Source: Frankiaceae bacterium
Lineage (GTDB): Bacteria; Actinomycetota; Actinomycetes; BP-191
Direction: 5' to 3'
Length of the DNA: 64,000 nt
Assembly (NCBI GenBank): GCA_035556555.1
Contig: DATMES010000059.1
Location: 12,054-76,053 of the forward strand
Shown here: positions 14,468 through 36,680 of the stretch, piece by piece
Layout of the letters: every line of letters begins with the position of its first letter
Position numbering within the stretch: position 1 is the first letter of the stretch
The notes under the pieces: generated by a model
Told to the model about the DNA's origin: nothing
Seen by the model: the letters and a program-made list of their open reading frames with translations, nothing else
Databases searched by the model: none
Translations under genes and position numbers: made by a program

Positions 14468-14722
14468 GTGGTGCCCATGCGCCGCTGTGCCGTCCTGCTG
14501 TCCCTCGCCGTCGCGGCGAGTCTCGCGCCCGCGTCCGCCGCGCACGCCGGCGACTTCTGCGCGCGCGTCTGGACCGAGAACACGATCGGCCCGAACGTCG
14601 ACACCGCGCCCGCGGAGCCGTGCGTCGCGTACGACTACGGGCTGATCTGCCACTACGACGAGAACTACGTCCACCCGTACGTCGCCGTCTTCATCACGGT
14701 CTGCCACCCGCGCCCTATCTAG
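14468..14722 (+). CDS. Small secreted cysteine-containing protein (84 aa), hypothetical
   Basis: Signal peptide (MRRCAVLLSLAVAASLAPASAAHA) followed by 4 Cys. Its stop overlaps the convergent ECF sigma gene stop. Confidence 0.45.
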   Translation: MVPMRRCAVLLSLAVAASLAPASAAHAGDFCARVWTENTIGPNVDTAPAEPCVAYDYGLICHYDENYVHPYVAVFITVCHPRPI

Positions 14723-15600: not shown

Positions 15601-15933
15601 GGCGGCCTCCCCCGTTCTCTCGCGCGCTGAGGCGGGCGCGTGACGCCCAGAGTGGCGCGAACAGGGCATAGCGGCAAGGCGCGCGGCAAACCTTCCGGCG
15701 ACAATGCCGTTACCCGGGAACGAATCGGACGGATCGCCGCTTACCGTCGTAGGAAGCAACGTCCCACGCTCGGCTACCACGATCGTCAGCGCCCAGACGC
15801 ACGGCAGGAGACGTCCTGACCGCGTCGAAGCCAGGCTAGGTAGGCCGTTTTCAGGGGCGGACCCAGCACCACTGGAACACAATTCACGTAACCCCTGTCT
15901 AGCCAAGCCCAGCCAGGCTGGCGAGGAGAGCTC

Positions 15934-20913: not shown

Positions 20914-20927
20914 GCAACTCCGTACGA

Positions 20928-20968
20928 CCCGAAGGCGTCTCCGGCCATCACGGCCGGGGCGCCTTCGG
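20928..20968 (+). terminator. Hairpin (ccgaaggcg...cgccttcgg) just 3' of the giant surface protein gene
   Basis: Inverted repeat seen ~15 nt after the stop. Confidence 0.4.
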
Positions 20969-20991
20969 CGTTTCCGGGGGAGACTGCTCGC

Positions 20992-21234
20992 GTGCCGGAC
21001 CACCTCGTCACCCTGCTGGGCAAGCCGGGCTGCCACCTGTGCGATGACGCGCGCGCCTTGGTCGTGCGGGTCGCGACGGATCTCGGCGTGGCGTGGGAGG
21101 AGCGCGACGTGACGACCGAAGACGCGCTGTACGAGGAGTACGCCGACCGCATCCCCGTCGTCCTCGTCGATGGCAAGGAGCACGGCTACTGGACAGTCGA
21201 CGAAGGTCGCCTGCGCCGCGCCCTCGCCCGCTGA
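20992..21234 (+). CDS. Glutaredoxin-family small thiol-disulfide protein (CxxC: CHLC)
   Basis: 80 aa. KPGCHLCDDA thioredoxin-fold active site with a conserved VDG...GYW C-terminal region. Confidence 0.75.
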   Translation: MPDHLVTLLGKPGCHLCDDARALVVRVATDLGVAWEERDVTTEDALYEEYADRIPVVLVDGKEHGYWTVDEGRLRRALAR

Positions 21235-21385
21235 ACCCCCATTGATCGCACCCAGCTGCTCCGCTACCCTGCGCCCTTCGTCGGCGCGCATGTTGTGCGC
21301 CGGTTTCGCGCTGCGCGCGTCTCTCGAGGGGGTTGGGTTCTTGTCCAGTTCGTCCCTGCATGCTCTGCGCCGGATTGGCCGATGG

Positions 21386-23104
21386 ATGGTCTCGTTGTCC
21401 GTGATAGCCGCGGGAACCGCGGTGGGAGTGGCGGCGACCGCACCGCCATCGATGGCAGCCACGACGACCCGATTCGACTGCGTCGGTGTGGCAGAGTCGT
21501 ACGTCGTGCCGCCGGCTGTCGTCGCGCTCGACGTGCTCCTCGCCGGCGCGTCAGGCGGCACTAACGAGACGGCAGGCCTCGGAGGAACCGTGGCGGCGCG
21601 GATCAACGTCGCCCCCGGCACGGTCCTCACCGTGAACGCGGGATGCGCTAACGGGTACAACGGCGGTGGCCTCGCACGCTACCGCCGGAACGGAGGAGGA
21701 GCTTCGGATATCCGTACCGGTGCCGCGACGCTCAACGACCGGATCGTCGTCGCGGGTGCCGGCGGCGGTGCCGGCCATCTGGATGGCGCGGCCGGAGGGT
21801 CAGGCGGATTCATTGGCACGCGTGGCGCCTTCGGCGTAGACCGACAGACAGGAGCCGTGCTGTACGGCGGGGACGGTGGCAGCCGAACCCACGGCGGTTC
21901 CGCTGGTCGTGTGTTGATCGGATCCCGCTGTCAGCTCGTCGACTACCCGGGCGACGGCGAGTTCGGTTCGGGTGGTGGCGGCGCGGTCCCCGTGCCCGGC
22001 TCCGGCGGGACGGGCGGCGGTGGAGGCGGCGGGTACTACGGGGGCGGCGGGGGTGACGCGACATGCAACGGCGGCGGTGCCGGTGGCGGCGGTTCAAGCT
22101 TCGGTCCGCCCGACGCGGTGTTCGCCACCGGCGTGAACCTGGGTGACGGGTACGTCGAGATCACGCCCGCGTCCGCGCCGGCGGTCAGCACGCCCTCTCC
22201 GACGTTCGCGTCCGATGACTGCGCCGGGGGCACTTTGATCGCCGACGTCATCGCCGCGGACGACACGCGCGTCCGTGTCCTCTCGCGCCAGCCCGACTCG
22301 CAGACGCTCTGGGTCTGCGTCCGTGCCGACGGGTCGGCGGTTCGTACGGGCGGGAAGTTCGTCGTCACGGCGCCAACCGGCATCGGCGGGCGGCCGACGG
22401 TCGACTCGGCGTCGAACGCGTGCACGGCGACGCCGGGTAACGGCGTTCCGACGCCGCATCCGCTGCTCTCCGGCGCTGTCGGCGATCCCGCGGATCCCAC
22501 GACGTTTCTGCCGTACCTCCTCGACGCCTACAGCGGCGCGCAAGGCACCTGGGTCTGCGTCGGAGTCGGTCCTGTCCAGACGCGGTTCGTCGTGCCTTCG
22601 GGCATTGGTGTGTCACCCGCGCCGGTGACGTTCGTCGCCGATCCGCCTGGCCCGCACCCGCTGGCGCCGGTCCCCGCAGGCACCATCCCGTCTGGCGAGT
22701 GCCAGTCTCGTCCGAGCAACAACGCGTACCTCGATGTGGCGAGTGACGCCGGGCGGGTGTTAGTCCACCAGCGTCCGGTCGCAGAGAACGAGGTGGCGAT
22801 CTGCGTCCGTGCGGAGTCGGTGGCCGCGGTCGGCGGCAGGCTGACGGTGCGCGTCGCCGGTGCAGAGGGGCTCCTCCCGTCTGTCACGACGAGCTCGACG
22901 GACATGTCTCCGTGCACCGTCCAGGTCTTCCACAACGACGCCCCGCTGATCGACATACGCCGCAGTTCGACCGGTGCCGTGCCCGCGTCGCTCTGCGTCA
23001 CGGTCGGCACGGACTCGCTGCGCGTCACCGTGGGCACCGGCAGCGGCGGCGCGCCCGCCGACGTCACGTGGACCCCCGACCCCGGCACGCCCGGGCTGCC
23101 GTAA
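21386..23104 (+). CDS. Secreted glycine-rich repeat protein (predicted beta-helix/Gly-rich domain)
   Basis: Signal peptide, then GGxGG-rich tracts (GGGGAVPVPGSGGTGGGGGGGYYGGGGGDATCNGGGAGGGGSS) and a Thr/Pro/Val-rich C-terminus. The start is uncertain: the first ATG after the glutaredoxin stop was used (ORF 21170..23104), and an alternative TTG sits ~45 nt upstream. Confidence 0.6.
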   Translation: MVSLSVIAAGTAVGVAATAPPSMAATTTRFDCVGVAESYVVPPAVVALDVLLAGASGGTNETAGLGGTVAARINVAPGTVLTVNAGCANGYNGGGLARYRRNGGGASDIRTGAATLNDRIVVAGAGGGAGHLDGAAGGSGGFIGTRGAFGVDRQTGAVLYGGDGGSRTHGGSAGRVLIGSRCQLVDYPGDGEFGSGGGGAVPVPGSGGTGGGGGGGYYGGGGGDATCNGGGAGGGGSSFGPPDAVFATGVNLGDGYVEITPASAPAVSTPSPTFASDDCAGGTLIADVIAADDTRVRVLSRQPDSQTLWVCVRADGSAVRTGGKFVVTAPTGIGGRPTVDSASNACTATPGNGVPTPHPLLSGAVGDPADPTTFLPYLLDAYSGAQGTWVCVGVGPVQTRFVVPSGIGVSPAPVTFVADPPGPHPLAPVPAGTIPSGECQSRPSNNAYLDVASDAGRVLVHQRPVAENEVAICVRAESVAAVGGRLTVRVAGAEGLLPSVTTSSTDMSPCTVQVFHNDAPLIDIRRSSTGAVPASLCVTVGTDSLRVTVGTGSGGAPADVTWTPDPGTPGLP

Positions 23105-23119
23105 GCGGGAACGCACCCA

Positions 23120-23158
23120 CCAGGGGCCGTCGGCACAACACCTCGCCGACGGCCCCTG
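23120..23158 (+). terminator. 13-bp stem hairpin (caggggccgtcggc...gccgacggcccctg) 3' of the glycine-rich protein gene
   Basis: Perfect inverted repeat seen directly. Confidence 0.55.
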
Positions 23159-23176
23159 GCGTGCGTACGCCCGACT

Positions 23177-23194
23177 TTGTGCAGGCGTTCACAA
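23177..23194 (+). promoter_or_regulatory. Candidate Rex operator TTGTGCAGGCGTTCACAA, ~100 nt upstream of rex
   Basis: Matches the actinobacterial Rex operator consensus TTGTGAA-N4-TTCACAA with one mismatch. Sits ahead of the rex-hem operon as in Streptomyces. Confidence 0.6.
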
Positions 23195-23297
23195 GGCGTA
23201 TTCTCAATGGCACAAGCGAGCGGCCCGGACTCGGAGTGTGGCCGGGACCAAGGCTCGCGCGAGGGAGATCCGTGCGTACGCGAGCCTGGGGCGGGGC

Positions 23298-23963
23298 GTG
23301 AAAAGCTCGCGCGGCATACCCGAGGCCACGGTCGCCCGGCTGCCCGTCTACCTCCGCGCGCTGGCCGGCCTGGCCGACGGCGGCTCCGAGACGGTCTCCT
23401 CCGACGCCCTCGCTCTCGCGGCGGGCGTCAACTCCGCCAAGGTGCGCAAGGACCTCTCCCACCTCGGCTCGTACGGCACCCGCGGCGTCGGCTACGACGT
23501 CAACTACCTCGTCCACCAGATCTCCCGCGAGCTCGGCCTCACGCAGGACTGGGCCGTCGTCATCGTCGGCATCGGCAACCTGGGCCACGCGCTCGCCAAC
23601 TATGGTGGGTTCGCCGAACGCGGCTTCCGCATCGCCGCCCTCGTCGACGCGGACCGCCGGCGAGTCGGCGAGGAGCTCGCCGGGGTCAACGTCAGCCACA
23701 TGGACGACCTCGACGCGATCGTCCGCGAGTCGAAGGTCTCCATCGGCGTCATCGCCACTCCCGCGCACGCCGCGCAGGACGTGTGCGACCGTCTGGTGGC
23801 GGCCGGCGTGACGAGCATCCTCAACTTCGCCCCCGTCGTCATCAACGTCCCCGCGGGCGTCGACCTCCGCAAGGTGGACCTGTCGATCGAGCTGCAGATC
23901 CTGTCGTTCCACGAGCAGCGCAAGGCCGCGATGTCGCGCCTGCGAACGGCGGTGGAGTCGTGA
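23298..23963 (+). CDS. rex: Redox-sensing transcriptional repressor Rex
   Basis: RGIPEATVARLPVYLRAL winged-helix N-terminus. Rossmann NADH-binding region (VVIVGIGNLGHALANY). Conserved position directly upstream of hemA. Confidence 0.85.
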   Translation: MKSSRGIPEATVARLPVYLRALAGLADGGSETVSSDALALAAGVNSAKVRKDLSHLGSYGTRGVGYDVNYLVHQISRELGLTQDWAVVIVGIGNLGHALANYGGFAERGFRIAALVDADRRRVGEELAGVNVSHMDDLDAIVRESKVSIGVIATPAHAAQDVCDRLVAAGVTSILNFAPVVINVPAGVDLRKVDLSIELQILSFHEQRKAAMSRLRTAVES

Positions 23964-25264
23964 GCGTCCTCGTCGTCGGCCTCTCCCACAAGACCGCCCC
24001 TGTCGACCTGCTCGAACGCGTCGCGATCCCCGCCGACCACGTGGCCAAGGCACTGAACGACCTCCAGGCCGGGCTGCACGTCGTCGAGTCCGCCGTCCTC
24101 TCCACGTGCAACCGCGTCGAGGTCTACGCGCACGTCACCCGTTTCCACGGCGGTGTCCAGGAGGTCAGCGACCTGCTGTCGCGGCTGTCCGGCGTTCCCC
24201 TCGAGGACCTATCCGACCACCTCTACGTCCACTACGAGGAGCGCGCGGTCCAGCACCTGTTCGCGGTCGCGTCCGGGCTCGACTCGATGGTCGTCGGCGA
24301 GGGGCAGATCCTCGGCCAGGTCCGCGGCGCGTTCAAGGTCGCGCAGGACGAGGGCAGCGTCTCGCGGGTGCTCGGCGAGCTGTTCCGCCACTCGCTGCGC
24401 GTCGGCAAGCGGGTCCGTACGGAGACCGCCATCGGCCGCGCCGGCGCCTCGCTCGTCGGGATCGGGCTGCGCGTCGCGCAGGCCACCCTCGGCCCCCTCG
24501 GCCCCGACACCAAGGCGCTCATCGTCGGCGCGGGCTCGATGGGCGCGCTGGCCGGTACGACGCTGCGCCGCGAGGGCGTCACCGACCTCGTCGTCGCCAA
24601 CCGCACCGCCGACCGCGCCGCCGCCCTGGCCGGCACGCTGGACGGCCGTGGGATCGGCCTCGACGACCTCGCTGCCGCCATGGCCGGCGCCGACCTCGTG
24701 ATCTCCTCGACCGGCGCCTCCGGCCTGGTGATCGAGGCCGATGCCGTACGCCGCGCCGTCGAGCAGCGTGAAGGCCGCCCGCTCTTCCTGCTCGACCTCG
24801 CGCTGCCCCGCGACGTCGATCCCGCCGTCCGCGAGATACCCGGCGTACGCCTCGCCGACCTCGACGCGCTGCGCGCCGTCCTCGACACCGAGGAGACCGG
24901 CGCCGACCTCGACGACGCGCGCGACATCGTGGCCGAGGAGGTCATGGCGTTCCTCGCGTGGCAGCGTTCGATGCGGGTCGCGCCGACGGTGGTCGCCCTG
25001 CGCGCCAAGGCCGACGCCCTCATCGCCGGTGAGCTCGAACGCCTCACCGCCCGCGTCCCCGACCTCGACGCGCGCTCGCGTACGGAGGTCGAGACCGCCG
25101 TACGCCGCGTCGTCGACAAGCTCCTGCACGCCCCGACGGTGCGCGTGAAGGAGCTGGCCGAGTCGCCCGGCGGCGACCAGTACGCCGAGGCGCTGCGCGA
25201 GCTGTTCATGCTCGATCCGCAGGTCGCCGAGGCCGTCATCGTGCCCGACGAGGTGACGCCGTGA
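23960..25264 (+). CDS. hemA: Glutamyl-tRNA reductase
   Basis: VLVVGLSHKTAPVDLLE...STCNRVEVY...LIVGAGSMG are hallmark HemA motifs. A GTG start overlaps the rex stop. Confidence 0.9.
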   Translation: MSVLVVGLSHKTAPVDLLERVAIPADHVAKALNDLQAGLHVVESAVLSTCNRVEVYAHVTRFHGGVQEVSDLLSRLSGVPLEDLSDHLYVHYEERAVQHLFAVASGLDSMVVGEGQILGQVRGAFKVAQDEGSVSRVLGELFRHSLRVGKRVRTETAIGRAGASLVGIGLRVAQATLGPLGPDTKALIVGAGSMGALAGTTLRREGVTDLVVANRTADRAAALAGTLDGRGIGLDDLAAAMAGADLVISSTGASGLVIEADAVRRAVEQREGRPLFLLDLALPRDVDPAVREIPGVRLADLDALRAVLDTEETGADLDDARDIVAEEVMAFLAWQRSMRVAPTVVALRAKADALIAGELERLTARVPDLDARSRTEVETAVRRVVDKLLHAPTVRVKELAESPGGDQYAEALRELFMLDPQVAEAVIVPDEVTP

Positions 25265-26166
25265 CGCTGCGCCTGGGCACGAGGAGGAGCGCGCTCGCGA
25301 TGGCGCAGAGCGGCGGCGTCGCGGCCACGCTCATCGCCACCACGGGCCAGGACGTCGAGCTGGTCGAGATCACCACGCGCGGCGACACCGACCCCGGCGC
25401 GATCACGCAGATCGGCGGTACGGGCGTCTTCGTCTCCGCGCTGCGCGACGCGCTGCTCGCCGGCGAGGTCGACCTCGCGGTGCACTCGCTCAAGGACCTC
25501 CCGACCGAGCCCGCCGAGGGGTTGGTGGTCGCCGCGATCCCGACGCGCGAGGACCCGCGCGACGTGCTCTGCTCGCCCGCCGGGCTGACGCTCGGCGAGC
25601 TGCCGACCGGCGCCCGCGTCGGTACGGGCTCGCCGCGACGCGCCGCGCAGCTGCTCGCGCTGGGCCTGGGCATCGAGGTCGTCCCGATCCGCGGCAACGT
25701 CGACACCCGCCTCAAGAAGGCCATCGACGGCGAGGTCGACGCGGTCGTCCTCGCCCGCGCCGGACTGGCCCGGCTCGACCGGCTCGACGCTGTGAGCGAG
25801 GTGCTCGACCCGATCCAGCTGCTCCCGGCGCCCGGCCAGGGCGCGCTCGCGGTCGAGTGCGTCGCGGGGTCGCCGGTCGCCGACCTGCTGCGAGCCCTGG
25901 ACGACCCCGACACCCGCGCCTGCGTCACCGCCGAGCGGGCGCTGCTCCGCGCGCTGGAGGCCGGCTGCACCGCGCCGGTCGGCGCGCTGGCAGACCTGGC
26001 CGACGACGAGATCTACCTGCGGGCCGCGGCCTGCGCCCCGGACGGCTCCGACGTCCTGCGGCAGAGCCTGACCGGACCCATGACGGAGCCGGAGGAGCTG
26101 GGGCGCCGGCTCGCGGCGATCCTGCTCGACGACGGCGCCGCGGAACTGATGGGGGAGCGCCCATGA
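25261..26166 (+). CDS. hemC: Hydroxymethylbilane synthase (porphobilinogen deaminase)
   Basis: LRLGTRRSALAMAQS...VHSLKDLPT...GALAVE motifs. Translationally coupled to hemA. Confidence 0.9.
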   Translation: MTLRLGTRRSALAMAQSGGVAATLIATTGQDVELVEITTRGDTDPGAITQIGGTGVFVSALRDALLAGEVDLAVHSLKDLPTEPAEGLVVAAIPTREDPRDVLCSPAGLTLGELPTGARVGTGSPRRAAQLLALGLGIEVVPIRGNVDTRLKKAIDGEVDAVVLARAGLARLDRLDAVSEVLDPIQLLPAPGQGALAVECVAGSPVADLLRALDDPDTRACVTAERALLRALEAGCTAPVGALADLADDEIYLRAAACAPDGSDVLRQSLTGPMTEPEELGRRLAAILLDDGAAELMGERP

Positions 26167-27866
26167 GCGCCCGCAAGCCGAAGGGGTCGGTCGCGCTGGT
26201 CGGTGCGGGTCCCGGTGACCCGGGCCTGCTGACGCTGCGCGGCCGTGAGCTGCTCGAGCACGCCGACGTGGTCGTCATCGACCGCCTCGCGCCGCTCGCG
26301 CTGCTGGCGTACTGCAGGACCGACGTCGAGGTCATCGACGCAGGCAAGGCGCCGCACGGCGAGGGCATGACCCAGGCCGACATCAACGCCCTGCTCGTCG
26401 CGCACGCCAAGGACGGCAAGCACGTCGTACGCCTCAAGGGCGGCGACCCGTTCGTCTTCGGCCGCGGCGGCGAGGAGGCCGAGGCCTGCGTCAAGGCGCG
26501 CATCCCCTGGGAGGTCGTGCCGGGCGTGACGTCGGCGGTGGCCGTGCCTGCGTACGCCGGCGTCCCCGTCACACACAGGGGCCGTACGCAGGACTTCGCC
26601 GTCGTCTCCGGTCACGTCGACCCGAGCGCGCCCGACAGCACCGTCGACTGGCGCGCGCTCGCGACCGGCCCCGGCACCGTCGTGCTCCTCATGGGCGTCG
26701 AGAAGATCGGCAAGATCGCCGCCAAGCTCATCGAGCACGGCAAGGCCGGCGACACCCCCGTCGCGATGACGCAGTGGGGCACCACCGCGCGGCAGCGCAC
26801 CGTCGTCGCCGACCTCAACACCATCGAGGAGACGGCCAACGCCGCCGGCATGAAGGCGCCCGCCGTCACCGTCATCGGCGAGGTCGTCAAGCTGCGCGAC
26901 AAGCTCAACTGGTACGAGTCCCGCCCGCTGTTCGGCATGACCGTGCTCGTCCCGCGGACCCGTCAGCAGGCGGGGACGCTGTCGTACGAGGTCCGCGCGC
27001 TCGGCGGCTCGCCGCTCGAGGTCCCGACCATCGCCATCGAGCCGCCGCGCAACCCCGAGCCGATGCGCCGCGCCGTCAGCGGGCTGGTGCAGGGGCGGTA
27101 CCAGTGGGTGGCGTTCACCTCGGTCAACGCCGTCCGCGCCGTCCGCGAGGGGCTGGAGTCCGTGGGTCTCGACCCCCGCGCGCTGGCCGGCGTGAGGATC
27201 GCCGCCGTGGGCGACGCAACCGTGGAAGCGTTGCGGGAGTGGGGACTCCGGGCCGACCTCGTGCCCGACGCCGCGATGTCGTCGGAGGAGCTGGGCAAGG
27301 TCTGGCCGCCGTACGACCCGCAGCTCGACTTCCTCGATCGCGTCCTGCTGCCGCGCGCCGACATCGCGACCGAGACGCTCGTCGCGGCTGTGAAGGCGAA
27401 GGGCTGGGCGGTCGACGAGGTCACGGCGTACCGCACCGTCCGCGCGCAGCCGCCGGCCGACGAGGTCAAGGCCGCCGTCCGCAACGGCGACGTCGACGCC
27501 GTCGTCTTCACGTCGTCCTCGACCGTCAAGAACCTCGTCGCGCTCTGCGGCAAGCCGCACGAGCGGACGCTCGTCGCGGCCATCGGCCCGCAGACCGCCG
27601 CCGCCGCGCGCGAGGCGGGCCTGCGCGTCGACGTCGAGTCCAAGGTGGCGACCGTCGCGGCCGTCACCAAGGCGCTCGGCGACTTCGTGGTGGCGGGCCG
27701 TACGGCCGCGCTCGAGGCCGCCGCGAAGCCTGCCCGCAAGGCGCCCGCGAAGAAGCCCGTTGCGAAGGCCGTGCCCGTCAAGAAGGCGCCGGCCAAGAAG
27801 GCTCCTGCCAAGGCCGCCCCTGCCAAGGCCGCCCCTGCCAAGGCCAAGGCGCGGACGAAGCGATGA
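26163..27866 (+). CDS. hemD: Bifunctional uroporphyrinogen-III C-methyltransferase / uroporphyrinogen-III synthase (CobA-HemD fusion) with a Lys/Ala/Pro-rich basic C-terminal tail
   Basis: N-terminal SUMT motifs ([36 protein letters not shown]). C-terminal HemD-like half. Final ~50 aa are [47 protein letters not shown]. Confidence 0.85.
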
Positions 27867-28852
27867 CGACGCCGCCGCCGTTCCCCGTGTCGAGGCCGCG
27901 GCGGCTGCGCCGTACGCCCGCTCTCCGCAGGCTCGCCGCCGAGACGCGGCTGCACCCGAGCGACCTCGTGCTGCCGCTGTTCGTCAAGGAGGGCATCGCC
28001 GACCCCGCGCCCGTCGCGTCGATGCCGGGTGTCGTCCAGCACACCCGCGACTCGCTGCGGAAGGCCGCCGTCGAGGCGGTCGAGGCCGGCGTCGGCGGGC
28101 TGATCCTCTTCGGCATCCCCGCGGTCAAGGATGCGCGCGGCTCGGCCGCCGACGACCCCGACGGCATCGTCCAGGTGGCGCTGCGCGACCTCGTCTCCGA
28201 GCTGGGCGACAGCACGGTGCTCATGACCGACTGCTGCCTCGACGAGTACACCGACCACGGCCACTGCGGCCTGCTCCGCGAGGACGGCTCCGTCGACAAC
28301 GACGCCACGCTCGCCCGCTACGCCGCCGCCGCCGTCGCGCAGGCTCGTGCCGGGTCCGCCGTCGTCGCGCCGAGCGGGATGATGGACGGCCAGGTCGCCG
28401 CGATCCGCGATGCCTTGGATGCCAACGGCTTCGACGAGGTCGCGATCCTCGCGTACAGCGCGAAGTACGCCAGCGCGTTCTACGGCCCGTTCCGGGACGC
28501 GGCCGAGTGCGCACCCCAGTTCGGTGACCGGGCGGCGTACCAGCAGGACCCGGCCAACGCCGGCGAGGCCGTCCGCGAGGTGCTGCTCGACCTCGCCGAG
28601 GGCGCCGACATGGTCATGGTGAAGCCGGCGATGGCGTACCTCGACGTCGTCCGCCGCGTCGCCGACGTGTCCGGGGTCCCTGTGGCGGCGTACCAGGTGT
28701 CGGGGGAGTACGCGATGGTCGAGGCCGCCGCCGCCAACGGCTGGCTCGACCGCGACCGCACGATCCTCGAGACGCTGACGTCGATCCGCCGCGCGGGTGC
28801 CGACATCGTGCTGACGTACTGGGCCACCGAGGTCGCGCGCGCGCTCCGGTAG
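27863..28852 (+). CDS. hemB: Porphobilinogen synthase (delta-aminolevulinic acid dehydratase)
   Basis: [15 protein letters not shown]-terminus. Active-site region ([32 protein letters not shown]). Confidence 0.9.
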
Positions 28853-28886
28853 GTACGCGGCGGCCTCACGCCGAATCTCCCAGGGC

Positions 28887-30539
28887 ATGAAGCGCCTGGT
28901 CGCCGTCCTCGCGGCTCTCTTGCTCGCCACGCCCGCCGCGCCGCCGTCGGCTGCGGCCGACGTGACGTACGAGTCGGTGTACTTCCCTTCGGCGGACGGC
29001 ACGCTGCTGCACGCCGAGGTCTTCCGGCCCGCCGGCGGGGGCCGCGCGCCCGTGGTGCTCCTCGTCTCGCCGTACAACAACGGCACCAGCGTCACGGTGG
29101 ACGACCGGCAGCCGGGCAACCTGCACTACGCGCCGTTTCAGACGCTGCTCGACCAGGGGTACGCCGTCGTCCAGGCCAGCCTGCGCGGCTACAGCGCGAG
29201 CGGCGGCTGCGGCGACTGGGGCGGCAAGGGCGAGCAGGCCGACGCCAAGGCCGCAGTGGAGTGGGCCGCGAGCCAGCGCTGGTCCACCGGGCGTGTGGGG
29301 ATGTACGGCATCTCGTACGACGGGTGGACGCAGATCATGGCGCTCGCCACGAAGCCGCGCGGGCTCGCGGCGGTCGTCGCGCAGGCGCCGCTCACCGACG
29401 GGTACCGCGCGTTCTGGATGAACGGCTCGCACTACCAGGGCGCCTGGTGGATCTCGGCGACGGTCGGCTACGGGACGACCGACCTCAAGCCGCCGAACCA
29501 GGCCCAGGGCCCCGAGGGACTCGTCAACGCCACCACCGGCACCGCTCTCAACCCGCACTGCTACGCGTCCAACGCGGCGTTCACCGCGACGGGCGACAAG
29601 TCGCTGCCGTACTGGCGGGAGCGCGACATCGTCGCGCGCGCGGCGGAGTCGAGGGTGCCGGTGCTGTGGTCGCAGGGCTTCCGCGACATCCAGGTGAAGC
29701 CCGACAACTTCGCGGTGCTGTATCCGAGGCTGCGCGGTCCGAAGCGGACGTGGGTCGGCCAGTTCACCCACCGCGCGCCCAACCACGCCGGCGTCGAGGC
29801 CGTCGCCGCGCGCTACGTCAGCGAGGCGATCGACTGGTTCGACGCGTACGTGAAGCGCGACCCCGCCGCGCTCGCGCGCGTCGAGGCCGAGCCCGAGGCA
29901 GTCGTGCAGGAGGGCGACGGCCGCTGGCGCACCGACACGGCGTGGCCGCCGCGCGACGCGCGCGCGACCTCACTGAGGCTGCGTTCGGGGACGTACTTCG
30001 AGGACCCGCGCGACGACGGCAAGCAGCCGACCGACGAGGGCGACATCGTCTGGTCGGTCAGCAGGCCGCTGCCGTACGCCGTGCACCTCGCGGGCATCCC
30101 GCGCGTGACGCTCACCGCGCAGGGCATCGGTCCCGCGCAGGTCGTCGTCAAGGTCTACGACGTCGACCCGGCCGGCCAGGCCCGCATGGTGACGCGCGCC
30201 GTCCACGCGAACGTCAGCGGCAAGGTGTCGTTCGACCTGTACCCGCAGGACTGGCGGTTCGAGCCGGGCCACCGCATCGCGGTCGGCGTGCAGGGCAGCG
30301 ACACGTTCTGGTCGGGGCCGCGCTCGCACTACCCGCCGGGCACCGACTTCGTCCGCGTCGCGACCGGCGGCAACGTCGCCGTCAGCGGTGCGTCGCTGAC
30401 GGTGCCCGCGCTGCGCGACGAGCGGACGACGTTCCTCTTCCCGCAGCGCATCGCGGCGGTCGCGCCGGAGCTGACGCTGACGGCGGCGCAGCTCGCGGCG
30501 TACGAGACGGCGTTCCGGCTCCCGGCGAGGATGCGCTGA
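28887..30539 (+). CDS. Secreted CocE/NonD-family alpha/beta hydrolase (S15 X-Pro dipeptidyl-peptidase-like), tandem paralog 1 of 3
   Basis: Signal peptide. Nucleophile elbow GISYDGW, then the CocE/NonD beta-sandwich C-domain. ~75% identical to paralog 2 by eye. Confidence 0.8.
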   Translation: MKRLVAVLAALLLATPAAPPSAAADVTYESVYFPSADGTLLHAEVFRPAGGGRAPVVLLVSPYNNGTSVTVDDRQPGNLHYAPFQTLLDQGYAVVQASLRGYSASGGCGDWGGKGEQADAKAAVEWAASQRWSTGRVGMYGISYDGWTQIMALATKPRGLAAVVAQAPLTDGYRAFWMNGSHYQGAWWISATVGYGTTDLKPPNQAQGPEGLVNATTGTALNPHCYASNAAFTATGDKSLPYWRERDIVARAAESRVPVLWSQGFRDIQVKPDNFAVLYPRLRGPKRTWVGQFTHRAPNHAGVEAVAARYVSEAIDWFDAYVKRDPAALARVEAEPEAVVQEGDGRWRTDTAWPPRDARATSLRLRSGTYFEDPRDDGKQPTDEGDIVWSVSRPLPYAVHLAGIPRVTLTAQGIGPAQVVVKVYDVDPAGQARMVTRAVHANVSGKVSFDLYPQDWRFEPGHRIAVGVQGSDTFWSGPRSHYPPGTDFVRVATGGNVAVSGASLTVPALRDERTTFLFPQRIAAVAPELTLTAAQLAAYETAFRLPARMR

Positions 30540-32167
30540 TGCACCGCCTCGTCGGCGTCCTCGCGGCCCTCCTGCTCGCGGTCCCCGCCGCGCCGTCGTC
30601 GGTCGCGGCGACGACGACGTACGAGACGGCGTACTTCCCCTCGGGCGACGGCACGATGCTGCACGCCGAGGTCTACCGCCCCGCCGGCTCCGGCAAGGTG
30701 CCGGTCGTGCTGCTGCTGTCGCCGTACAACAACGGCACCGGCGTCCTGTTCGAGGACCGGGGGCCAGGCAAGCTGCACTACCCGCAGCTTCAGACGTTGC
30801 TTGACCGCGGCTACGCCGTCGCGCAGGTCACGCTGCGCGGGTTCGGCGCGAGCGGCGGCTGCGGCGACCTCGGCGGCAACGGCGAGCAGGCCGACGCGAA
30901 GGCGTCCGTCGAGTGGGCGGCGTCGCGGCCGTGGTCCACGGGCCGAGTGGGCATGTGGGGCATCTCGTACGACGGGTGGACGCAGATCATGGCGCTCGCC
31001 ACGAAACCGCGAGGCCTCGCGGCGGTCGTCGCGCAGGCGCCGCTGTCGGCGGGCTACCGCGGCTTCTGGATGAACGGCTCCCACTACATGCACGGCTGGT
31101 GGCTCACCGCCGCCAACGGCTACGGGCTGCTCGACCTGAAGCCGCCGAACCAGGCGTACGGCCCCGAGGGTGTCGTGAACGCCGGCACCGGCACGGCCAC
31201 GAGCCCGCACTGCTATGCCACCAACGCCTCCATGACCGCAGTCGGCGACCCGTCGATCCCGTACTGGCGCGAGCGCGACCTCGTCGCGCGCGCCGCGCAG
31301 TCGACGGTGCCGGTGCTGTGGTCGCACGGCTTCCGCGACCCGTCGGTGAAGCCCGACAACATGACCGCGCTCTATCCGCTGCTGCGCGGGCCGAAGCGCG
31401 CGTGGGTCGGCCAGTTCGGCCACCGCGCGCCGCAGGACCCCAACGACCCGGCCGTCCTCGCGCGGTACAGCGCCGAGGCCGTCGACTGGCTCGACGCGTA
31501 CGTCCGCCAGGACCCGGCGGCTCTCGAGCGCGTCACCGCCGCGCCGGAGGCGGTCGTGCAGGAGGGCGACGGCCGTTGGCGCAACGACACCGCGTGGCCG
31601 CCCCGCGACGCCCGCGCGACGTCGCTGCGGCTGCGGGAGGGGACGTACGTCGAGGACCCGCGCGACGACGGCACCCAGCCGGCCGACGACGGCGAGGTGC
31701 TGTGGTCGGTGAGCAGGCCGCTGCCGTACGCCGTGCACCTCTCGGGGGTGCCGCGCGTGACGCTCACCGCGCGGGGTACCGGTCCGGCGCAGGTGGTCGT
31801 CAAGGTGTTCGACGTCGACCCGACCGGCGCGGCCCGCGTCGTCACGCGCGGCGTGCACGCGGCGGTGGCAGGGCGCGTGTCGTTCGAGCTCTATCCGCAG
31901 GACTGGCGCTTCGAGCCGGGCCATCGCATCGCCGTCGCGGTGCAGGGCAGCGACACGTACTGGTCGTACCCGTACGCCAACGCCCGCCCCGCCACCGGCC
32001 TCACCGTCGGCGTCGACGACGCCGCGCTGGCGGTGCCCGCGCTGCGGCAGGAGCGGACGGCGTTCCTGCACACCGCGCGTACCGACGTCGCACCCGAGCT
32101 GACGCTCACGCCGGCGCGAGTGGCGGCGGCCGAGACGGCGTTCCGGCTGCCGCCGAGGATGCGCTGA
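30539..32167 (+). CDS. Secreted CocE/NonD-family alpha/beta hydrolase, tandem paralog 2 of 3
   Basis: Same architecture and motifs (GISYDGW). Its start overlaps the paralog 1 stop. Confidence 0.8.
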   Translation: MHRLVGVLAALLLAVPAAPSSVAATTTYETAYFPSGDGTMLHAEVYRPAGSGKVPVVLLLSPYNNGTGVLFEDRGPGKLHYPQLQTLLDRGYAVAQVTLRGFGASGGCGDLGGNGEQADAKASVEWAASRPWSTGRVGMWGISYDGWTQIMALATKPRGLAAVVAQAPLSAGYRGFWMNGSHYMHGWWLTAANGYGLLDLKPPNQAYGPEGVVNAGTGTATSPHCYATNASMTAVGDPSIPYWRERDLVARAAQSTVPVLWSHGFRDPSVKPDNMTALYPLLRGPKRAWVGQFGHRAPQDPNDPAVLARYSAEAVDWLDAYVRQDPAALERVTAAPEAVVQEGDGRWRNDTAWPPRDARATSLRLREGTYVEDPRDDGTQPADDGEVLWSVSRPLPYAVHLSGVPRVTLTARGTGPAQVVVKVFDVDPTGAARVVTRGVHAAVAGRVSFELYPQDWRFEPGHRIAVAVQGSDTYWSYPYANARPATGLTVGVDDAALAVPALRQERTAFLHTARTDVAPELTLTPARVAAAETAFRLPPRMR

Positions 32168-33693
32168 TGCGCAGGGTCGCCCTCGCGCTCGCGGCGCTCG
32201 TCCTCGCCGCGCTGCCCGTCCCCGCGTCGGCCGCGACGACGTACGAGGAGACGTACATCGCCTCGGCCGACGGCACGCGGCTGCACACCGAGATCTTCCG
32301 GAAGCGGACGGGTCGGCTGCCGGTGGCGCTCATCGTGTCGCCGTACCTGCACGGGGACGCGTACCTGCGCGGCCCGGAGGCCGAGGCGCTGCTCGACCGC
32401 GGCTACGCCGTCGTGCAGACGGCGCTGCGCGGCTACGGCGGCAGTGACGGCTGCAGCGACCTCGGCGGCAAGGGCGAGCAGTCCGACGTGAAGGCCGCGG
32501 TCGAGTGGGCGGCGCGGCAGTCGTGGTCGACCGGCCGCGTCGGCATGTGGGGGCTGTCGTACGAAGGCTGGACGCAGGTCATGGCGCTCGCCACCCGACC
32601 GCGCGGGCTCGCGGCCGTCGCGATCCAGTCACCGCTGGTGAGCCTGTACCACGGCCTCTACATGAACCGCGCGCACTACGGCGGCGTCTGGTGGGCCATG
32701 CCGGCGTCGTACGGCGCCGACGACCTCGGCGGCACCGGCTCGCCCCAGCCCACCGACGCGACCTGCTACGCCGCGAACCTCACCGAGACGACGGGCGCCG
32801 ACCCGGACACGGCGTACTACCGCGAGCGCGACCTGATCGCCCGCGCCAGGACGTCGCGGGTGCCGGTGCTCTGGTCGCACGGGTTCAACGACGTCAACAC
32901 CAAGCCCGACAACCTCTCGGCGCTGTATCCGCTGCTGCGCGGGCCGAAGCGCGCGTGGGTCGGGCAGTTCCCGCACGTGACGCCGCCGGGCGGCGTCGGG
33001 CCGCGGTACCTGCGCGAGGTCGTGGACTGGTTCGACGCGTACGTCCGCGGCGACCGCGCCGCGCTCCGCCGGGTGACCGCCGCCCCGCGCGCGGTCGTGC
33101 AGCAGGGCGACGGGCGCTGGCGTACGGACTCGGCGTGGCCGCCGCGCGACGCGCGCGCCGTGACGTCGCGGCTGCGTTCGGGGACGTTCACCGACATCCC
33201 CGCCAACGACGGCAGCCAGGGCCACGAGGACGGCGCGGTGCTGTGGTCGTTCAGCCAGCGGCTGCCGTACGCCGTGCACCTCTCCGGCGCGCCGCGCGTG
33301 ACGGTCACGGTGCGCGGCACGGCGCCCGCGCAGGTCGTCGTCAAGGTGTACGACGTCGGCCCGGAGGGCGAGGCCGTGCCGGTGACCCGCGGCGTGCACG
33401 CTCTGGTGGACGGCAAGGCGTCGTTCGAGCTGTACCCGCAGGACTGGCGGTTCGCGCCTGGACACCGGATCGGGGTCGCGGTGCTCGGCAGCGACGGGAC
33501 GTTCTGGTCGCCCGCGGCGGGCGGGCAGGTGACGGTGAGCGGCGCGTCCCTGGCGGTGCCCGCTCTGCGCTACGAGCGCGGCGCGTCGTTCGCGGACACG
33601 TCGTCCACGAAGCCGGCGCAGTTCACGGTGGTCCCGGACGTCGTGAAGGCGGGCGAGACGACGTTCCGCCTCCCGCCGCGAATGCGCCCCTGA
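32167..33693 (+). CDS. Secreted CocE/NonD-family alpha/beta hydrolase, tandem paralog 3 of 3 (more diverged)
   Basis: Signal peptide plus a GLSYEGW nucleophile elbow. Start overlaps the paralog 2 stop. Confidence 0.8.
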   Translation: MRRVALALAALVLAALPVPASAATTYEETYIASADGTRLHTEIFRKRTGRLPVALIVSPYLHGDAYLRGPEAEALLDRGYAVVQTALRGYGGSDGCSDLGGKGEQSDVKAAVEWAARQSWSTGRVGMWGLSYEGWTQVMALATRPRGLAAVAIQSPLVSLYHGLYMNRAHYGGVWWAMPASYGADDLGGTGSPQPTDATCYAANLTETTGADPDTAYYRERDLIARARTSRVPVLWSHGFNDVNTKPDNLSALYPLLRGPKRAWVGQFPHVTPPGGVGPRYLREVVDWFDAYVRGDRAALRRVTAAPRAVVQQGDGRWRTDSAWPPRDARAVTSRLRSGTFTDIPANDGSQGHEDGAVLWSFSQRLPYAVHLSGAPRVTVTVRGTAPAQVVVKVYDVGPEGEAVPVTRGVHALVDGKASFELYPQDWRFAPGHRIGVAVLGSDGTFWSPAAGGQVTVSGASLAVPALRYERGASFADTSSTKPAQFTVVPDVVKAGETTFRLPPRMRP

Positions 33694-33735
33694 CCCCGTT
33701 TCGGCGGGGGTGGCGCGGGCTGGGAGGATGGGAGG

Positions 33736-35037
33736 GTGATGTACCCAGCCGACGCCCCCGCCTCCGAGGCACTGTTCGAGCGCGCCAAGCGCGTGACCCC
33801 CGGTGGGGTCAACTCGCCGGTCCGCGCGTTCGGCGCCGTCGGCGGCGCGCCGCGGTTCATGGTCTCCGGCGACGGCGCGTACCTCACCGACGCGGACGGG
33901 CGGACGTACGTCGACCTCGTCTGCTCGTGGGGCCCGATGATCCTCGGCCACCGGCACCCCGCGGTGCAGGAGGCGATCGCCGGCGCCGCCACGCAGGGCA
34001 CGAGCTTCGGCACGCCCACGCCCGGCGAGGTCGAGCTGGCCGAGCACATCACCGGGCGCGTGGACTTCGTCGAGCAGGTCAGGCTCGTCTCCTCCGGCAC
34101 CGAGGCGACGATGTCCGCGGTACGCCTCGCGCGCGGCTTCACCGGTCGCTCCAAGGTCGTGAAGTTCGCCGGCTGCTACCACGGCCACGTCGACGCGCTG
34201 CTCGCCAGCGCGGGCAGCGGCGTGGTGACGTTCGGGCTGCCGGACACGCCGGGCGTCACCGGCGCCAGCGCCGCCGACACGATCGTGCTGCCGTACAACG
34301 ACGTCGCCGCGGTCGAGGCGGCGTTCGAGGTGCACGGCAACGACATCGCCTGCGTCATCACCGAGGCCGCCGCCGCCAACATGGGCGTCGTCGCGCCGCT
34401 GCCCGGCTTCAACGCCGCCCTCCGCGACCTGACCACGCGGTACGGAGCGCTGCTGATCATCGACGAGGTCCTCACCGGCTTCCGCGTCAGCCCGACCGGC
34501 TGGTACGGCCTGGAGGGCGTACGGCCCGACCTCGCGACGTTCGGCAAGGTGATGGGCGGGGGGCTGCCGGCGGCGGCGTTCGGCGGGCGGGCCGACGTCA
34601 TGGGGCACCTCGCGCCCGCGGGCCCGGTCTACCAGGCGGGCACGCTCTCCGGTAACCCCGTCGCTGTCGCCGCCGGCCTGACGACCCTGCGGCACTGCAC
34701 CGACGACGTCTACGCGCACGTCGGCAAGACGGCGGAGACCGTGGCGGCCCTGGTGACCCAGGCCCTCACCGAGGCCGGCGTCGCACACCGGCTCAACACC
34801 GCGGGCAGCCTGTTCTCGGTCTTCTTCACGGAGCAGGCCGTCGTGGACTACGCCACCGCGAAGACCACGGACACGAAGCGGTACGGCGCGTTCTTCCACG
34901 AGTGCCTGCGCCGCGGCGTCTACCTGCCGCCGAGCGCGTACGAGGCGTGGTTCCTCTCCGCGGCGCACGACGACGCGGCCGTCGAGCGCATCGCCGAGGC
35001 CCTCCCGCATGCCGCTAGAGCCGCGGCGGCGCAGTGA
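33736..35037 (+). CDS. hemL: Glutamate-1-semialdehyde 2,1-aminomutase
   Basis: [21 protein letters not shown]-terminus. Class III aminotransferase motifs with the PLP Lys region ([18 protein letters not shown]). Confidence 0.9.
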
Positions 35038-35672
35038 CCGTCGTCACCCGGGTCCACCTGCTGCGGCACGGCGAGGTGCACAACCCAGGCAAGGTGCTGT
35101 ACGGCCGCCTGCCCGGCTTCCGGCTCTCGGACACCGGCGAGGCGATGGCGGTCATGGCCGCCGCGGCGCTGACCGGCCGTGACGTCACGCTGCTGCTCAC
35201 CTCGCCGCTCGAACGCGCCCAGCAGACCGCCGAGCCGCTGGCGAAGGTGCTCGACCTCACGCCGCGCGTCGACGACCGGCTGATCGAGAGCGGCAACAAG
35301 TTCGAGGGGCGCACCGTCGACCGCGGCTGGAAGTCGTTCACCGACCCGGCGGCGCTCACGCTGCTGCGCAACCCGTTCGAGCCGTCGTGGGGGGAGCCCT
35401 ACGCGGAGACGGCCCAGCGCATGCTCGAGGCCGTGACCGACGCGCGAGACGAGGCGTACGGGCACGAGGCCGTGGCGGTCAGCCACCAGCTCCCGATCTA
35501 CGTGCTGCGCCGCTTCGTCGAGGGGCGCCGCCTCGCGCACCGCCCCGACAAGCGGCAGTGCGGATTGGCGAGCTACACGACGCTGACCTGGCACGACCGC
35601 CGGCTCGCGTCGGTGACGTACACCGAGCCGGCCGGCGCGCTCTCCCGCAAGCCGGCTACGCCGGGGGCGTAG
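35034..35672 (+). CDS. Histidine phosphatase (phosphoglycerate-mutase-like) family protein
   Basis: [11 protein letters not shown] is the RHG catalytic motif. Conserved position after hemL as in mycobacteria and Streptomyces. Confidence 0.8.
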
Positions 35673-35841
35673 GCCAGCCGGGAGCCGGGGGGCCTGGCGG
35701 GTTCTTGCGGCGGCTGCGCTTCACGAGCAGCACGACGATGAGCACGACCGTGCCCACGACGAGGGCGAGGAACGCCAGCAGGATCAGGCCGACGATGGCG
35801 AGTCCGGCGCCCGTCGGGGCGGCGTCGGCGAGGGGGATCAT
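35656..35841 (-). CDS. Small single-TM membrane protein (about 61 aa), hypothetical
   Basis: MIPLADAAPTGAGLAIVGLILLAFLALVVGTVVLIVVLLVKRSRRK... Low confidence: it is a short ORF. Confidence 0.3.
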   Translation of the reverse strand: MIPLADAAPTGAGLAIVGLILLAFLALVVGTVVLIVVLLVKRSRRKNPPGPPAPGWPTPPA

Positions 35842-36680
35842 GCGGGTACCTCTCTCGGTCGGAACACCACGAGCGCCAGGACCGCGTACTCGACGTACGC
35901 GTGGTAGCTCGCGAGGGACGTATAGGCGATTTTGGTACCGGTCCACGCGGTCATGTAGCCGAACGCGAAAACTGCCGCCACCGCCGCCACGCCGACCCAC
36001 GCGATGCGCGGGAGGCGGGCCTGCGCGGGGCCGTTGCGCGGCAGGAACCAGCACCAGAACACGTAGTGCAGCACCTGGAGGAACGCGAACACCGCCAGCA
36101 GCCGCGCCGCCTCCGGCCCGCGCCACTCCGGCGGCGCGACCGTCGCGACGTGCCCCGACATCGGCCCCGCGAACGACACCGACTGGGACGACAGCGACGG
36201 CACGGGCAGCGCGCCGGTGAGCAGCAGCGCCGGCACGACGAGCAGCCAGGCGACCTGCACCGCGCGGAACGCCGTCCGCGCGCGGCCTGCCAGCCGGCGC
36301 GACCAGTCCCAGAGGAAGACGAACGGCACGAGGTTGTGCAGGTACGTCACCGCGACGAAGTAGTGGTCGAGGTGCGTCCACGCGATCACGCCGGCGACGA
36401 CGACGGCGGGCAGGCCGAACGCCGCGAGCACGGGCCGCGACCGCGCGCCCCACGCCATGCCGAATGCCAGGATCGCGAAGCCCGCGACGACCTCCACCCG
36501 CCGGCCAGGGGCGCCCACGAGGCGGGTCATGGCGATGACCGTGACCAGCGCGAGCACGCCGACCCGGAAGACGCCCGCGAACGACCCCGCCCACCGGGCC
36601 AGCACGTAGCGGAGCTCGAGGACGTTGTGCAGAATCCCCAGCACCATGAGCCCGACGACCGAGGCGAGCAGCGGCGCGCG
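35838..36680 (-). CDS. Polytopic integral membrane protein of unknown function; start uncertain
   Basis: Continuous run of hydrophobic helices in the C-terminal ~280 aa of ORF 35838..37100. The N-terminal part of that ORF is Arg/Asp-rich and looks spurious. Confidence 0.45.
   Translation of the reverse strand, partial: RAPLLASVVGLMVLGILHNVLELRYVLARWAGSFAGVFRVGVLALVTVIAMTRLVGAPGRRVEVVAGFAILAFGMAWGARSRPVLAAFGLPAVVVAGVIAWTHLDHYFVAVTYLHNLVPFVFLWDWSRRLAGRARTAFRAVQVAWLLVVPALLLTGALPVPSLSSQSVSFAGPMSGHVATVAPPEWRGPEAARLLAVFAFLQVLHYVFWCWFLPRNGPAQARLPRIAWVGVAAVAAVFAFGYMTAWTGTKIAYTSLASYHAYVEYAVLALVVFRPREVPA

Follow-up and report, generated by a model that had tools for sequence, protein, structure and literature searches.

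We propose that the three tandem genes lying between hemB and hemL in 64,000 nucleotides of sequence from an uncultured Frankiaceae bacterium (the whole stretch analysed, hereafter the window) belong to an uncharacterised clade of Sec-exported CocE/NonD (MEROPS S15-like) serine hydrolases of predicted activity, that the array is an optional accessory cassette in a variable spot between the hemB stop codon and hemL, and that its link to haem synthesis is one of position, possibly of co-regulation, and not of shared biochemistry. We put the probability of this explanation as a whole at roughly 0.7. The features of the window referred to below are as follows.

23177..23194, forward strand: Rex operator-like palindrome TTGTGCAGGCGTTCACAA, 43 nt 5' of rex, with one mismatch to TTGTGAANNNNTTCACAA
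23238..23963, forward strand: rex, redox-sensing repressor (NCBIfam equivalog model NF003992, 373 bits; cut-off 226)
23960-25264, forward strand: hemA (Pfam family and ORF; overlaps its neighbours)
25261-26166, forward strand: hemC (Pfam family and ORF; overlaps its neighbours)
26163-27866, forward strand: cobA/hemD fusion (Pfam family and ORF; overlaps its neighbours)
27863-28852, forward strand: hemB (NF006762, 481 bits; cut-off 297)
28853..28886, forward strand: hemB-P1 spacer, 34 nt, with a 5-bp GC hairpin (28858-28873) that has no U-tract
28887..30539, forward strand: P1, predicted type-A secreted CocE/NonD hydrolase, 550 aa (Tyr63, Ser143, Asp267, His295; Cys108, Cys225)
30539..32167, forward strand: P2, type-B paralog, 542 aa (Tyr63, Ser143, Asp267, His295), its start overlapping the P1 stop
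32167..33693, forward strand: P3, type-C paralog, 508 aa (Tyr60, Ser131, Asp242, His270)
33694..33735, forward strand: P3-hemL spacer, 42 nt, which keeps the GTTTCGGCGGGG...GGGCTGGGAGGATGG hemL leader and has no long terminator-like hairpin
33736-35037, forward strand: hemL (TIGR00713, 601 bits; cut-off 527)
35034-35672, forward strand: histidine-phosphatase-family gene (Pfam His_Phos_1), overlapping hemL

The initial annotation described three co-oriented hydrolase genes with overlapping starts and stops downstream of hemB, and the open reading frames agree: both the P1-P2 and the P2-P3 junctions read TGATG, so that stop and start share one base. Third-position GC reaches 0.94-1.00 in exactly the P1, P2 and P3 frames, and these three are the only hydrolase copies in the window. 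A GAGGA Shine-Dalgarno sequence, which contains the rare AGG codon, lies 7 nt 5' of the P2 and P3 starts, and no recognisable Shine-Dalgarno is present in the spacer before P1. The overlaps and the AGG-based Shine-Dalgarno support the translational coupling among the paralogs that had been suggested. None of the three genes is disrupted, and all are under purifying selection. Deletions set P3 apart from the other paralogs; they affect the cap region and one N-terminal loop.

All three proteins match Pfam Peptidase_S15 (PF02129; E 1e-46 to 1e-52, 159-179 bits against a cut-off of 23) and PepX_C (PF08530; 57-62 bits against 22.5), and the NCBIfam model TIGR00976 CocE_NonD scores 227.5, 222.4 and 188.3 bits for P1, P2 and P3, respectively, against a cut-off of 66.3. 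The nucleophile elbows are GISYDGW in P1 and P2 and GLSYEGW in P3; the catalytic triad, Ser143/Asp267/His295 in the first two proteins, is Ser131/Asp242/His270 in the third. Ser143, Asp267 and His295 fall on the catalytic motifs of the Xanthomonas citri AEH (1mpx) in a profile alignment and of CocE in an alignment. Across 83 homologs, Ser143, His295, Tyr63, Cys108 and Cys225 never vary, and Asp267 is kept in 90% or more. As judged from these alignments, P1-P3 retain the Ser/Asp/His triad, the oxyanion-hole Tyr and the conserved Cys pair. Thus the GxSYxGW elbow and the CocE/NonD C-terminal domain that had been read from each gene are found in all three, as is a signal peptide by rule (see below), and the triad is intact in every copy.

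An AlphaFold2 model of P1 (pLDDT 91.4, pTM 0.91) has a predicted order of secondary structure that matches an alpha/beta-hydrolase core with a helical cap and, at the C-terminus, a beta jelly-roll. Foldseek with this model gave CocE as the best match (TM 0.69), and the top 29 matches all came from the same fold family (TM 0.63-0.70); full-length matches were CocE, PaL lipase, AEH, PepX, SACOL2612 and an archaeal S15 aminopeptidase. Solved structures share about 20% identity with these proteins, and the nearest characterised enzymes are all distant. We considered the conserved C-terminal FRLPPRMR(RR) tail as a sorting signal and rejected it: in the model the tail lies within the fold at a pLDDT of about 98 and a hydrophobic anchor is absent, and it is therefore treated as probably structural.

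The hemB-hemL site carries zero, one, two or three hydrolase copies in related Frankiaceae contigs, and their order varies. There is none at the site in L137, L135 or L134, the last being the closest relative, with 97% identity in hemB and 92-94% nucleotide identity in the flanks; one is present in L129/L002, L130 and L131, two in L127, and three, in the order C-B-A, in L128. The same spot gathers further cargo, namely restriction-modification and DndB genes that adjoin the hydrolase array in L132 and L133, and a BNR protein and GNAT in some relatives. A scan of metagenome contigs found no relative above 48% identity and therefore no close context. In the history that we favour, the cassette would have entered the hemB-hemL site once in a Frankiaceae sub-lineage, followed by local duplication and later by reshuffling or loss.

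Upstream of the array, the gene order and the palindrome identify a rex-hemACDB operon with a putative Rex operator. The palindrome at 23177..23194 is the only TTGTGAANNNNTTCACAA-type match in the 64-kb window, and it is kept upstream of rex in L127, L128, L129, L002 and L131; 1.75 Mb of unrelated loci contained one comparable match. The footprinted rex operator of Streptomyces avermitilis is TTGTGCACGCGTTCACAA (PMC5355995). Downstream, the run of co-oriented genes ends with hemL and the histidine-phosphatase gene. Because the long terminator-like hairpin found ahead of the hemL leader in L134, L130 and L135 is missing from the window, and because a lone hydrolase lies upstream of that hairpin in one relative (L130, where it sits between hemB and a hairpin of -102 kcal/mol followed by TCTTTTC), co-transcription from the Rex-controlled promoter through the array to hemL is plausible, as judged from spacing and missing structures only. 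The hydrolases would then be read through from the hem promoter in this genome, and transcription probably runs on into hemL, since the relatives' hairpin is missing here.

The tight hemB-P1 junction without an obvious terminator, as first annotated, was borne out by the 34-nt spacer, by a consensus scan and by folding. The scan of positions 23000-36000 found no relevant terminator or sigma-70-type promoter, a kind of simple scan that misses actinobacterial promoters and U-less terminators, and neither spacer folded better than its shuffles (z of -0.5 and +1.3). Searching the window together with L002 and L003 against Rfam, with gathering thresholds, gave no RNA family near the locus. The small 5-bp hairpin after hemB, which recurs at the same position in L127, L128, L131 and the array-less L134, could be a leaky terminator or a processing site.

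It is possible, though we consider it the less likely course, that the hydrolases make up a separate transcription unit whose promoter lies in the spacer or within the 3'-terminal part of hemB, and that they merely adjoin the hem genes. The conserved hairpin after the hemB stop would fit such a unit, as would the gaps of 442 nt and 855 nt that precede the single hydrolase in L129/L002 and L003 and leave room for a promoter, and the S. avermitilis operon ends with hemB (PMC5355995). On the other hand, the gap is just 20-37 nt and has no promoter-like hexamers in the window, L127, L128, L130 and L131, and the strong hairpin in L130 follows the hydrolase, not hemB. More doubtful still is a scenario in which the strain-variable hydrolase cassette was captured ahead of the terminator that closes the Rex-controlled haem operon. 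The NADH/NAD+ ratio (oxygen limitation) would then turn on hydrolase export and haem synthesis at the same time, and terminator loss here would have joined rex-hemACDB, the hydrolases and hemL in a single redox-controlled transcript of 11 genes.

Export of the hydrolases themselves is predicted from the N-termini of P1-P3, which have positive charge, a hydrophobic core with a mean Kyte-Doolittle value above 3, and small-x-small cleavage sites; a lipobox Cys is absent from all three. These signal-peptide-like features were assessed by a rule for Sec type I signal peptides (charged n-region, h-region of about 10 or more residues, small-x-small site, no lipobox Cys) used in place of a trained predictor. 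Helix 2-13 at the N-terminus of the P1 model is of low confidence. A Tat signal in P3, considered for its start MRRVALAL with a loose RR pattern, was rejected as unconvincing, the n-region being just three residues. Cys108 and Cys225, invariant as noted above, are the only two Cys residues, and the pair is consistent with an extracytoplasmic disulfide.

Once exported, the predicted enzymes would hydrolyse extracellular peptides, amides or esters, presumably in nutrient scavenging. Because the paralogs diverge most in the helical cap region, where identity is 32-40% between paralog types and 58-80% among same-type orthologs, the sequences suggest that types A, B and C each have a different specificity. 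In Nocardia, a signal-peptide-bearing homolog is followed by a gene for a cytoplasmic M20 peptidase, which overlaps the hydrolase stop codon (ATGA) in three of the four loci inspected. The M20 gene makes up 10 of the 57 close neighbours of distant homologs, and this linkage, seen with homologs 35-38% identical and mostly in one genus, hints at peptide or amide substrates. A literature search on secreted or secretome CocE/NonD-family hydrolases yielded nothing usable.

A strict assignment of P1-P3 to the Xaa-Pro dipeptidyl-peptidases (PepX) is improbable. The Pfam names Peptidase_S15 and PepX_C invite this reading, and there are weak matches to NCBIfam PepX models and Foldseek matches to PepX structures (TM 0.68-0.70). 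However, the best NCBIfam PepX score is 133 bits against a cut-off of 642 and the other models give 21-79 bits against cut-offs of 711-988; P1-P3 have 508-550 aa and PepX 763-813 aa; the PepX N-terminal domain was not detected in P1-P3; and CocE, AEH and PaL lipase score equally or better.

The initial annotation found the pairing with tetrapyrrole biosynthesis genes odd. The co-orientation and adjacency stand, but the functional oddity does not, the hemB-hemL gap being a variable spot. We regard as very improbable a functional tie to tetrapyrrole metabolism, for example through a haem- or porphyrin-related extracellular substrate, for which the linkage would have been selected. The hydrolases keep their place beside hemB in several related genomes with unequal copy numbers, and the same Rex-dependent promoter could control both sets of genes. 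However, the closest relative, L134, does without the hydrolases, unrelated cargo gathers at the same site, and homologs outside the clade are never linked to hem genes (78 more distant loci, below 50% identity, with no hem genes within 10 kb). We know of no haem-synthesis step that requires a secreted serine hydrolase.

The pairwise identities of the paralogs (P1-P2 74.7%, P1-P3 59.5%, P2-P3 61.7%) agree with the initial annotation, which had the first two about 75% identical and the third more diverged; its further proposal of a recent tandem duplication, with selection on dosage, did not hold. The proportion of synonymous differences (pS) is 0.29 for P1-P2 and 0.35 for P1-P3 (range over the paralogs 0.29-0.36), and 0.25-0.32 for orthologous hemB, hemC and hemL of this contig and related genomes. 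Because synonymous distances plateau at a third-position GC near 97%, these values bound the paralog ages from below only. A neighbour-joining bootstrap tree has a group C (92), a group D (99) and an A+B group, each holding members from several contigs, and of the four ortholog groups A-D each copy in the window has orthologs elsewhere. The sequence comparisons thus indicate that the paralogs are older than the divergence of the sampled related genomes. Dosage selection is unlikely, since paralog pS equals ortholog pS and the copies group with outside orthologs; diversified specificity fits better. We did not accept relaxed or positive selection from the dN/dS of 0.5-0.9 among paralogs, synonymous sites being at a compositional plateau. 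In L128_1 the first 50 alignment columns are closer to P1 and the remainder is type C, a possible mosaic on little data. A recent duplication selected for gene dosage is scarcely credible: the repeat unit is exactly one gene (period 1652 nt) and the two junction sequences are almost identical, but P1 and P2 (about 76-80% DNA identity) are as far apart as hem genes between genomes, P2 is nearer to L127_2 and L128_2 (78%) than to P1 (75%), P1 has an 87% ortholog (P0001), and types A, B and C occur together on several other contigs.

The analysis defines a clade of predicted Sec-exported CocE/NonD hydrolases in soil Actinomycetota, divided into four ortholog groups with differing cap regions. It offers candidates in the search for new esterases or peptidases, and its practical value is modest. 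It also provides an example of accessory secreted-enzyme genes within a housekeeping operon junction, present or absent among close relatives, and corrects the impression of a recent amplification or of a biochemical link to haem synthesis.

The genes are new members of a known family, a matter of ordinary gene-family biology and not a new system. The Rhodococcus cocaine esterase, CocE (PDB 1JU3), has the same alpha/beta-hydrolase domain, helical cap and C-terminal beta jelly-roll as P1-P3, with the triad in GxSYxG, GxxD and GxxxH contexts and the oxyanion-hole Tyr in an (N/S)PY motif (TM 0.69). P1-P3 differ from CocE in sequence (about 20% identity), in a cap region of unrelated sequence, and in having predicted signal peptides and the conserved Cys pair; CocE is cytoplasmic. 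Among solved structures, the X. citri alpha-amino acid ester hydrolase (AEH, 1MPX) gives the strongest profile match (E 2e-31), aligned across all three catalytic motifs; this enzyme and that of Acetobacter turbidans (2B4K) are longer (615-652 aa) and about 20% identical to P1-P3. PaL lipase (8YZN/8YZO), for which a literature search found no publication, is of similar size (505 aa; target-normalised TM 0.70-0.71; profile E 1e-30) at 19-20% identity. As for the operon, S. coelicolor (rex-hemACD) and S. avermitilis (rex-hemAC1DB) share the rex-hemA-hemC-hemD-hemB order seen here, and a near-identical putative Rex operator precedes rex. Unlike the Streptomyces operon, the cluster in the window and in some relatives adds one to three predicted secreted-hydrolase genes after hemB, and here it appears to continue terminator-free into hemL and the histidine-phosphatase gene.

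Analysis of the hemB-hemL region showed that the three hydrolase genes P1, P2 and P3 belong to a run of genes (stated total, eleven) that are all on the + strand and either overlap or are set very close together, in a window of about 74% G+C. Between hemB and P1 there are 34 nt, and between P3 and hemL 42 nt; the P1-P2 and P2-P3 junctions are both TGATG.

Genes around the hydrolase array
23238-23963, + strand, rex (passes the NCBIfam equivalog cut-off)
ending at 25264, + strand, hemA
ending at 26166, + strand, hemC
ending at 27866, + strand, cobA/hemD fusion
27863-28852, + strand, hemB (passes the NCBIfam equivalog cut-off)
28887-30539, + strand, P1, 550 aa
30539-32167, + strand, P2, 542 aa
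32167-33693, + strand, P3, 508 aa
33736-35037, + strand, hemL (passes the NCBIfam equivalog cut-off)
35034-35672, + strand, histidine-phosphatase-family gene

Third-position GC of 0.94-1.00 marked the coding frames of P1-P3 exactly, in agreement with the three overlapping, co-oriented genes of the initial annotation. At the DNA level the array repeats every 1652 nt, each unit corresponding to exactly one gene, and no fourth hydrolase copy was found elsewhere in the 64-kb window. In P1 and P2 alike, the antepenultimate Arg codon is AGG, which is used for 5% of the Arg codons across eight local genes, and it places GAGGA 7 nt ahead of the following ATG; in P3, with no paralog after it, CGA stands at the same position. 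Together with the TGATG overlaps, this codon pattern supports the proposed translational coupling within the array. No Shine-Dalgarno sequence was found for P1.

The region 5' of rex (15934-23104, + strand) contains a 1659-aa ORF without a Pfam match, a small Glrx-like gene and a gene for a 572-aa protein matching the glycine-rich ALK_LTK_GRD. The first two are syntenic in related contigs L127, L129, L134, L135 and L136, and for the glycine-rich protein a faint match in L136 is the sole recurrence. On the minus strand, a c-di-GMP-I riboswitch (RF01051, 11635-11712; 50.3 bits vs a gathering score of 35) is followed 3' by three tandem signal-peptide-bearing CAP/SCP-domain genes (10833-11669, 9914-10603 and 8996-9742), a second secreted paralog array, possibly under c-di-GMP control.

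All three hydrolases matched Peptidase_S15 and PepX_C, and scored 188-227 bits against TIGR00976 (CocE_NonD; cut-off, 66). Because they scored far below the cut-offs of the PepX-specific NCBIfam models, we assigned them to CocE/NonD and not to PepX. The GxSYxGW nucleophile elbows noted earlier are GISYDGW in P1 and P2 and GLSYEGW in P3, with the catalytic acid in GF(R/N)D and the base in GQFxH; in HMMER alignments these residues coincide with the motifs of cocaine esterase (CocE) and Xanthomonas alpha-amino-acid ester hydrolase (AEH), so that the catalytic triad is retained. Among 83 homologs, reaching down to about 38% identity, Ser143, His295, Tyr63, Cys108 and Cys225 are invariant and Asp267 is kept in at least 90%. 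Tyr63 lies in an SPY motif and is the counterpart of the NPY Tyr of CocE. For P1, AlphaFold2 gave a confident model (pLDDT 91.4, pTM 0.91), whose best 29 Foldseek matches in the PDB all belong to this fold family (TM 0.63-0.70, about 20% identity), namely CocE, PaL lipase, AEH, PepX, SACOL2612 and an archaeal S15 aminopeptidase. A rule-based check found Sec type-I signal peptide features at all three N-termini, as annotated initially, and no lipobox; the invariant Cys pair fits the predicted export. Thus, P1-P3 are new CocE/NonD family members, a real but ordinary feature.

The initial annotation had supposed a recent tandem duplication. Protein identity is 74.7% for P1-P2, as it had estimated, 59.5% for P1-P3 and 61.7% for P2-P3, but the synonymous distances speak against recent copies. 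With third-position GC of about 97% placing synonymous distance near its plateau, Nei-Gojobori pS was 0.29 for P1-P2 (dS 0.37) and 0.35-0.36 for pairs with P3, vs 0.25-0.32 for hemB, hemC and hemL orthologs between the window contig and three related ones. The paralogs thus date back at least to the divergence of these genomes. Ortholog dN, well under saturation, was 0.15-0.19 for hydrolase types A and B (the ortholog groups of P1 and P2) and 0.27 for type C (that of P3), 2-5 times the 0.05-0.10 of the hem genes. Each copy has nearer relatives elsewhere than its sister copies; for example, P0001, a protein found by search, is 87% identical to P1. In a neighbor-joining tree (100 bootstraps), one clade holds all hem-linked hydrolases (100%), comprising type C (P3 and six others; 92%), a fourth type, D (99%), and the A+B group, in which P1 pairs with P0001 (100%) and P2 groups with L128_2, P0013 and P0009. 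Divergence between the types peaks in the helical cap (alignment columns about 175-275), where sliding-window identity of type C vs A/B falls to 32-40%, vs 58-80% for same-type orthologs. Thus, P1-P3 are old paralogs and not a fresh amplification.

We also compared the hemB-hemL junction in related contigs, recovered via the closest proteins (L127-L133) or a hemB search (L134-L137).

Contents of the hemB-hemL junction, or of the stretch after hemB, in relatives
L129/L002: hemB, 442 nt, type D, about 350 nt, hemL
L130: hemB, 20 nt, type A, 138 nt, hemL
L131: hemB, 35 nt, one A+B-group gene (B-like), 112-aa ORF, hemL
L127: hemB, A, B, reverse BNR_2 gene (13524-14864), hemL
L128: hemB, C, B, A, reverse GNAT gene
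L132: type C and an A/B-like gene, then DNA methylase, HNH and Vsr (3494-7133)
L133: types B and C, then DndB (3626-4759)
L134, closest relative (hemB 97% identical, flanks 92-94% in DNA): hemB, 112 nt, directly hemL
L135: one reverse-strand gene
L136: different multi-gene insert with an ABC-transporter block (10311-18987)
L137 (83%): 430-nt gap

No hydrolase homolog was found in the L134-L137 loci. Because the contents differ across relatives, the junction is a variable spot and the array is dispensable, accessory cargo of 0-3 copies in changeable order, and the unrelated cargo in L127, L132, L133 and L136 marks the gap or array end as an insertion hotspot. Of 80 genome loci with homologs, hem genes lie nearby in only 2, those of two Frankiaceae MAGs (60-70% identity); in the remaining 78 (below 50% identity; Solirubrobacterales, Nocardia, Saccharopolyspora and others) there are none within 10 kb. 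The co-orientation with hem genes noted initially holds in the window, but the haem linkage is positional, not functional.

In relatives with a single hydrolase copy, a conserved 112-117-aa ORF without a Pfam match overlaps the start of hemL (L129, 11611-11964; L131, 8615-8953; L002, upstream of 11958); this ORF is not in the window. L128 (5750-10590) carries the array as C-B-A and the window (28887-33693) as A-B-C; despite this, the hemB-proximal spacer and first codons (ATGAAGCG) are conserved between the two, and the first 50 alignment columns of L128_1 are nearer to P1 than to P3. This pattern hints at recombination among the paralogs.

No characterised close homolog of P1-P3 was found. 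Among 57 ORFs within 400 nt of distant homologs, Peptidase_M20 was the most frequent family (10 members). In Nocardia, an M20 gene without a signal peptide comes after a homolog that has one (L027, L039, L044 and L073, about 10001-13060); the M20 start overlaps the hydrolase stop (ATGA) in the first three of these four inspected loci and follows an 87-nt gap in L073. Such pairing would be in keeping with small peptides or amino-acid conjugates being released outside the cell and then finished inside it. These homologs share no more than 35-38% identity and mostly belong to one genus, and the linkage is a hint, making peptide or amide substrates for P1-P3 somewhat more likely.

The hemB-P1 and P3-hemL spacers contain no consensus terminator or promoter, in line with the earlier remark that hemB lies close to P1 without an obvious terminator, and fold no better than shuffled sequence. 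In L134, the hemB-hemL spacer (MFE -67 kcal/mol) has first a small GC hairpin, then a long hairpin GATCACCTGTGT...ACACAGGTGATC, then GTTTCGGCGGGG...GGGCTGGGAGGATGG leading into hemL. Equivalent long hairpins followed by TTTC occur in L130 (-102 kcal/mol, z = -7.3) and L135.

Long hairpins upstream of the hemL leader
L134, 9991-10102
L130, 2232-2368
L135, 10974-11148

In all three loci TTTC comes after the hairpin. The stems differ in sequence with pairing retained, and the hairpins are probably the terminator of the hemB unit. The single hydrolase of L130 lies between hemB and the hairpin, and therefore inside the hemB unit, ahead of the likely terminator. The window retains the small hairpin (28858-28873) and the leader GTTTCGGCGGGGG...GGGCTGGGAGGATGG, and lacks the long stem; transcription would probably run on into hemL. 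At a distance of 43 nt, rex is preceded by a Rex operator-like palindrome, TTGTGCAGGCGTTCACAA, which is kept in five related loci, with only one comparable match in 1.75 Mb of unrelated loci; P1-P3 would be read from the putatively Rex-controlled promoter. The only mildly unusual aspect is that genes for predicted secreted enzymes appear to have been captured by a Rex-controlled housekeeping operon, ahead of its terminator; the known counterpart of this operon is S. avermitilis rex-hemAC1DB with its footprinted operator TTGTGCACGCGTTCACAA (PMC5355995).
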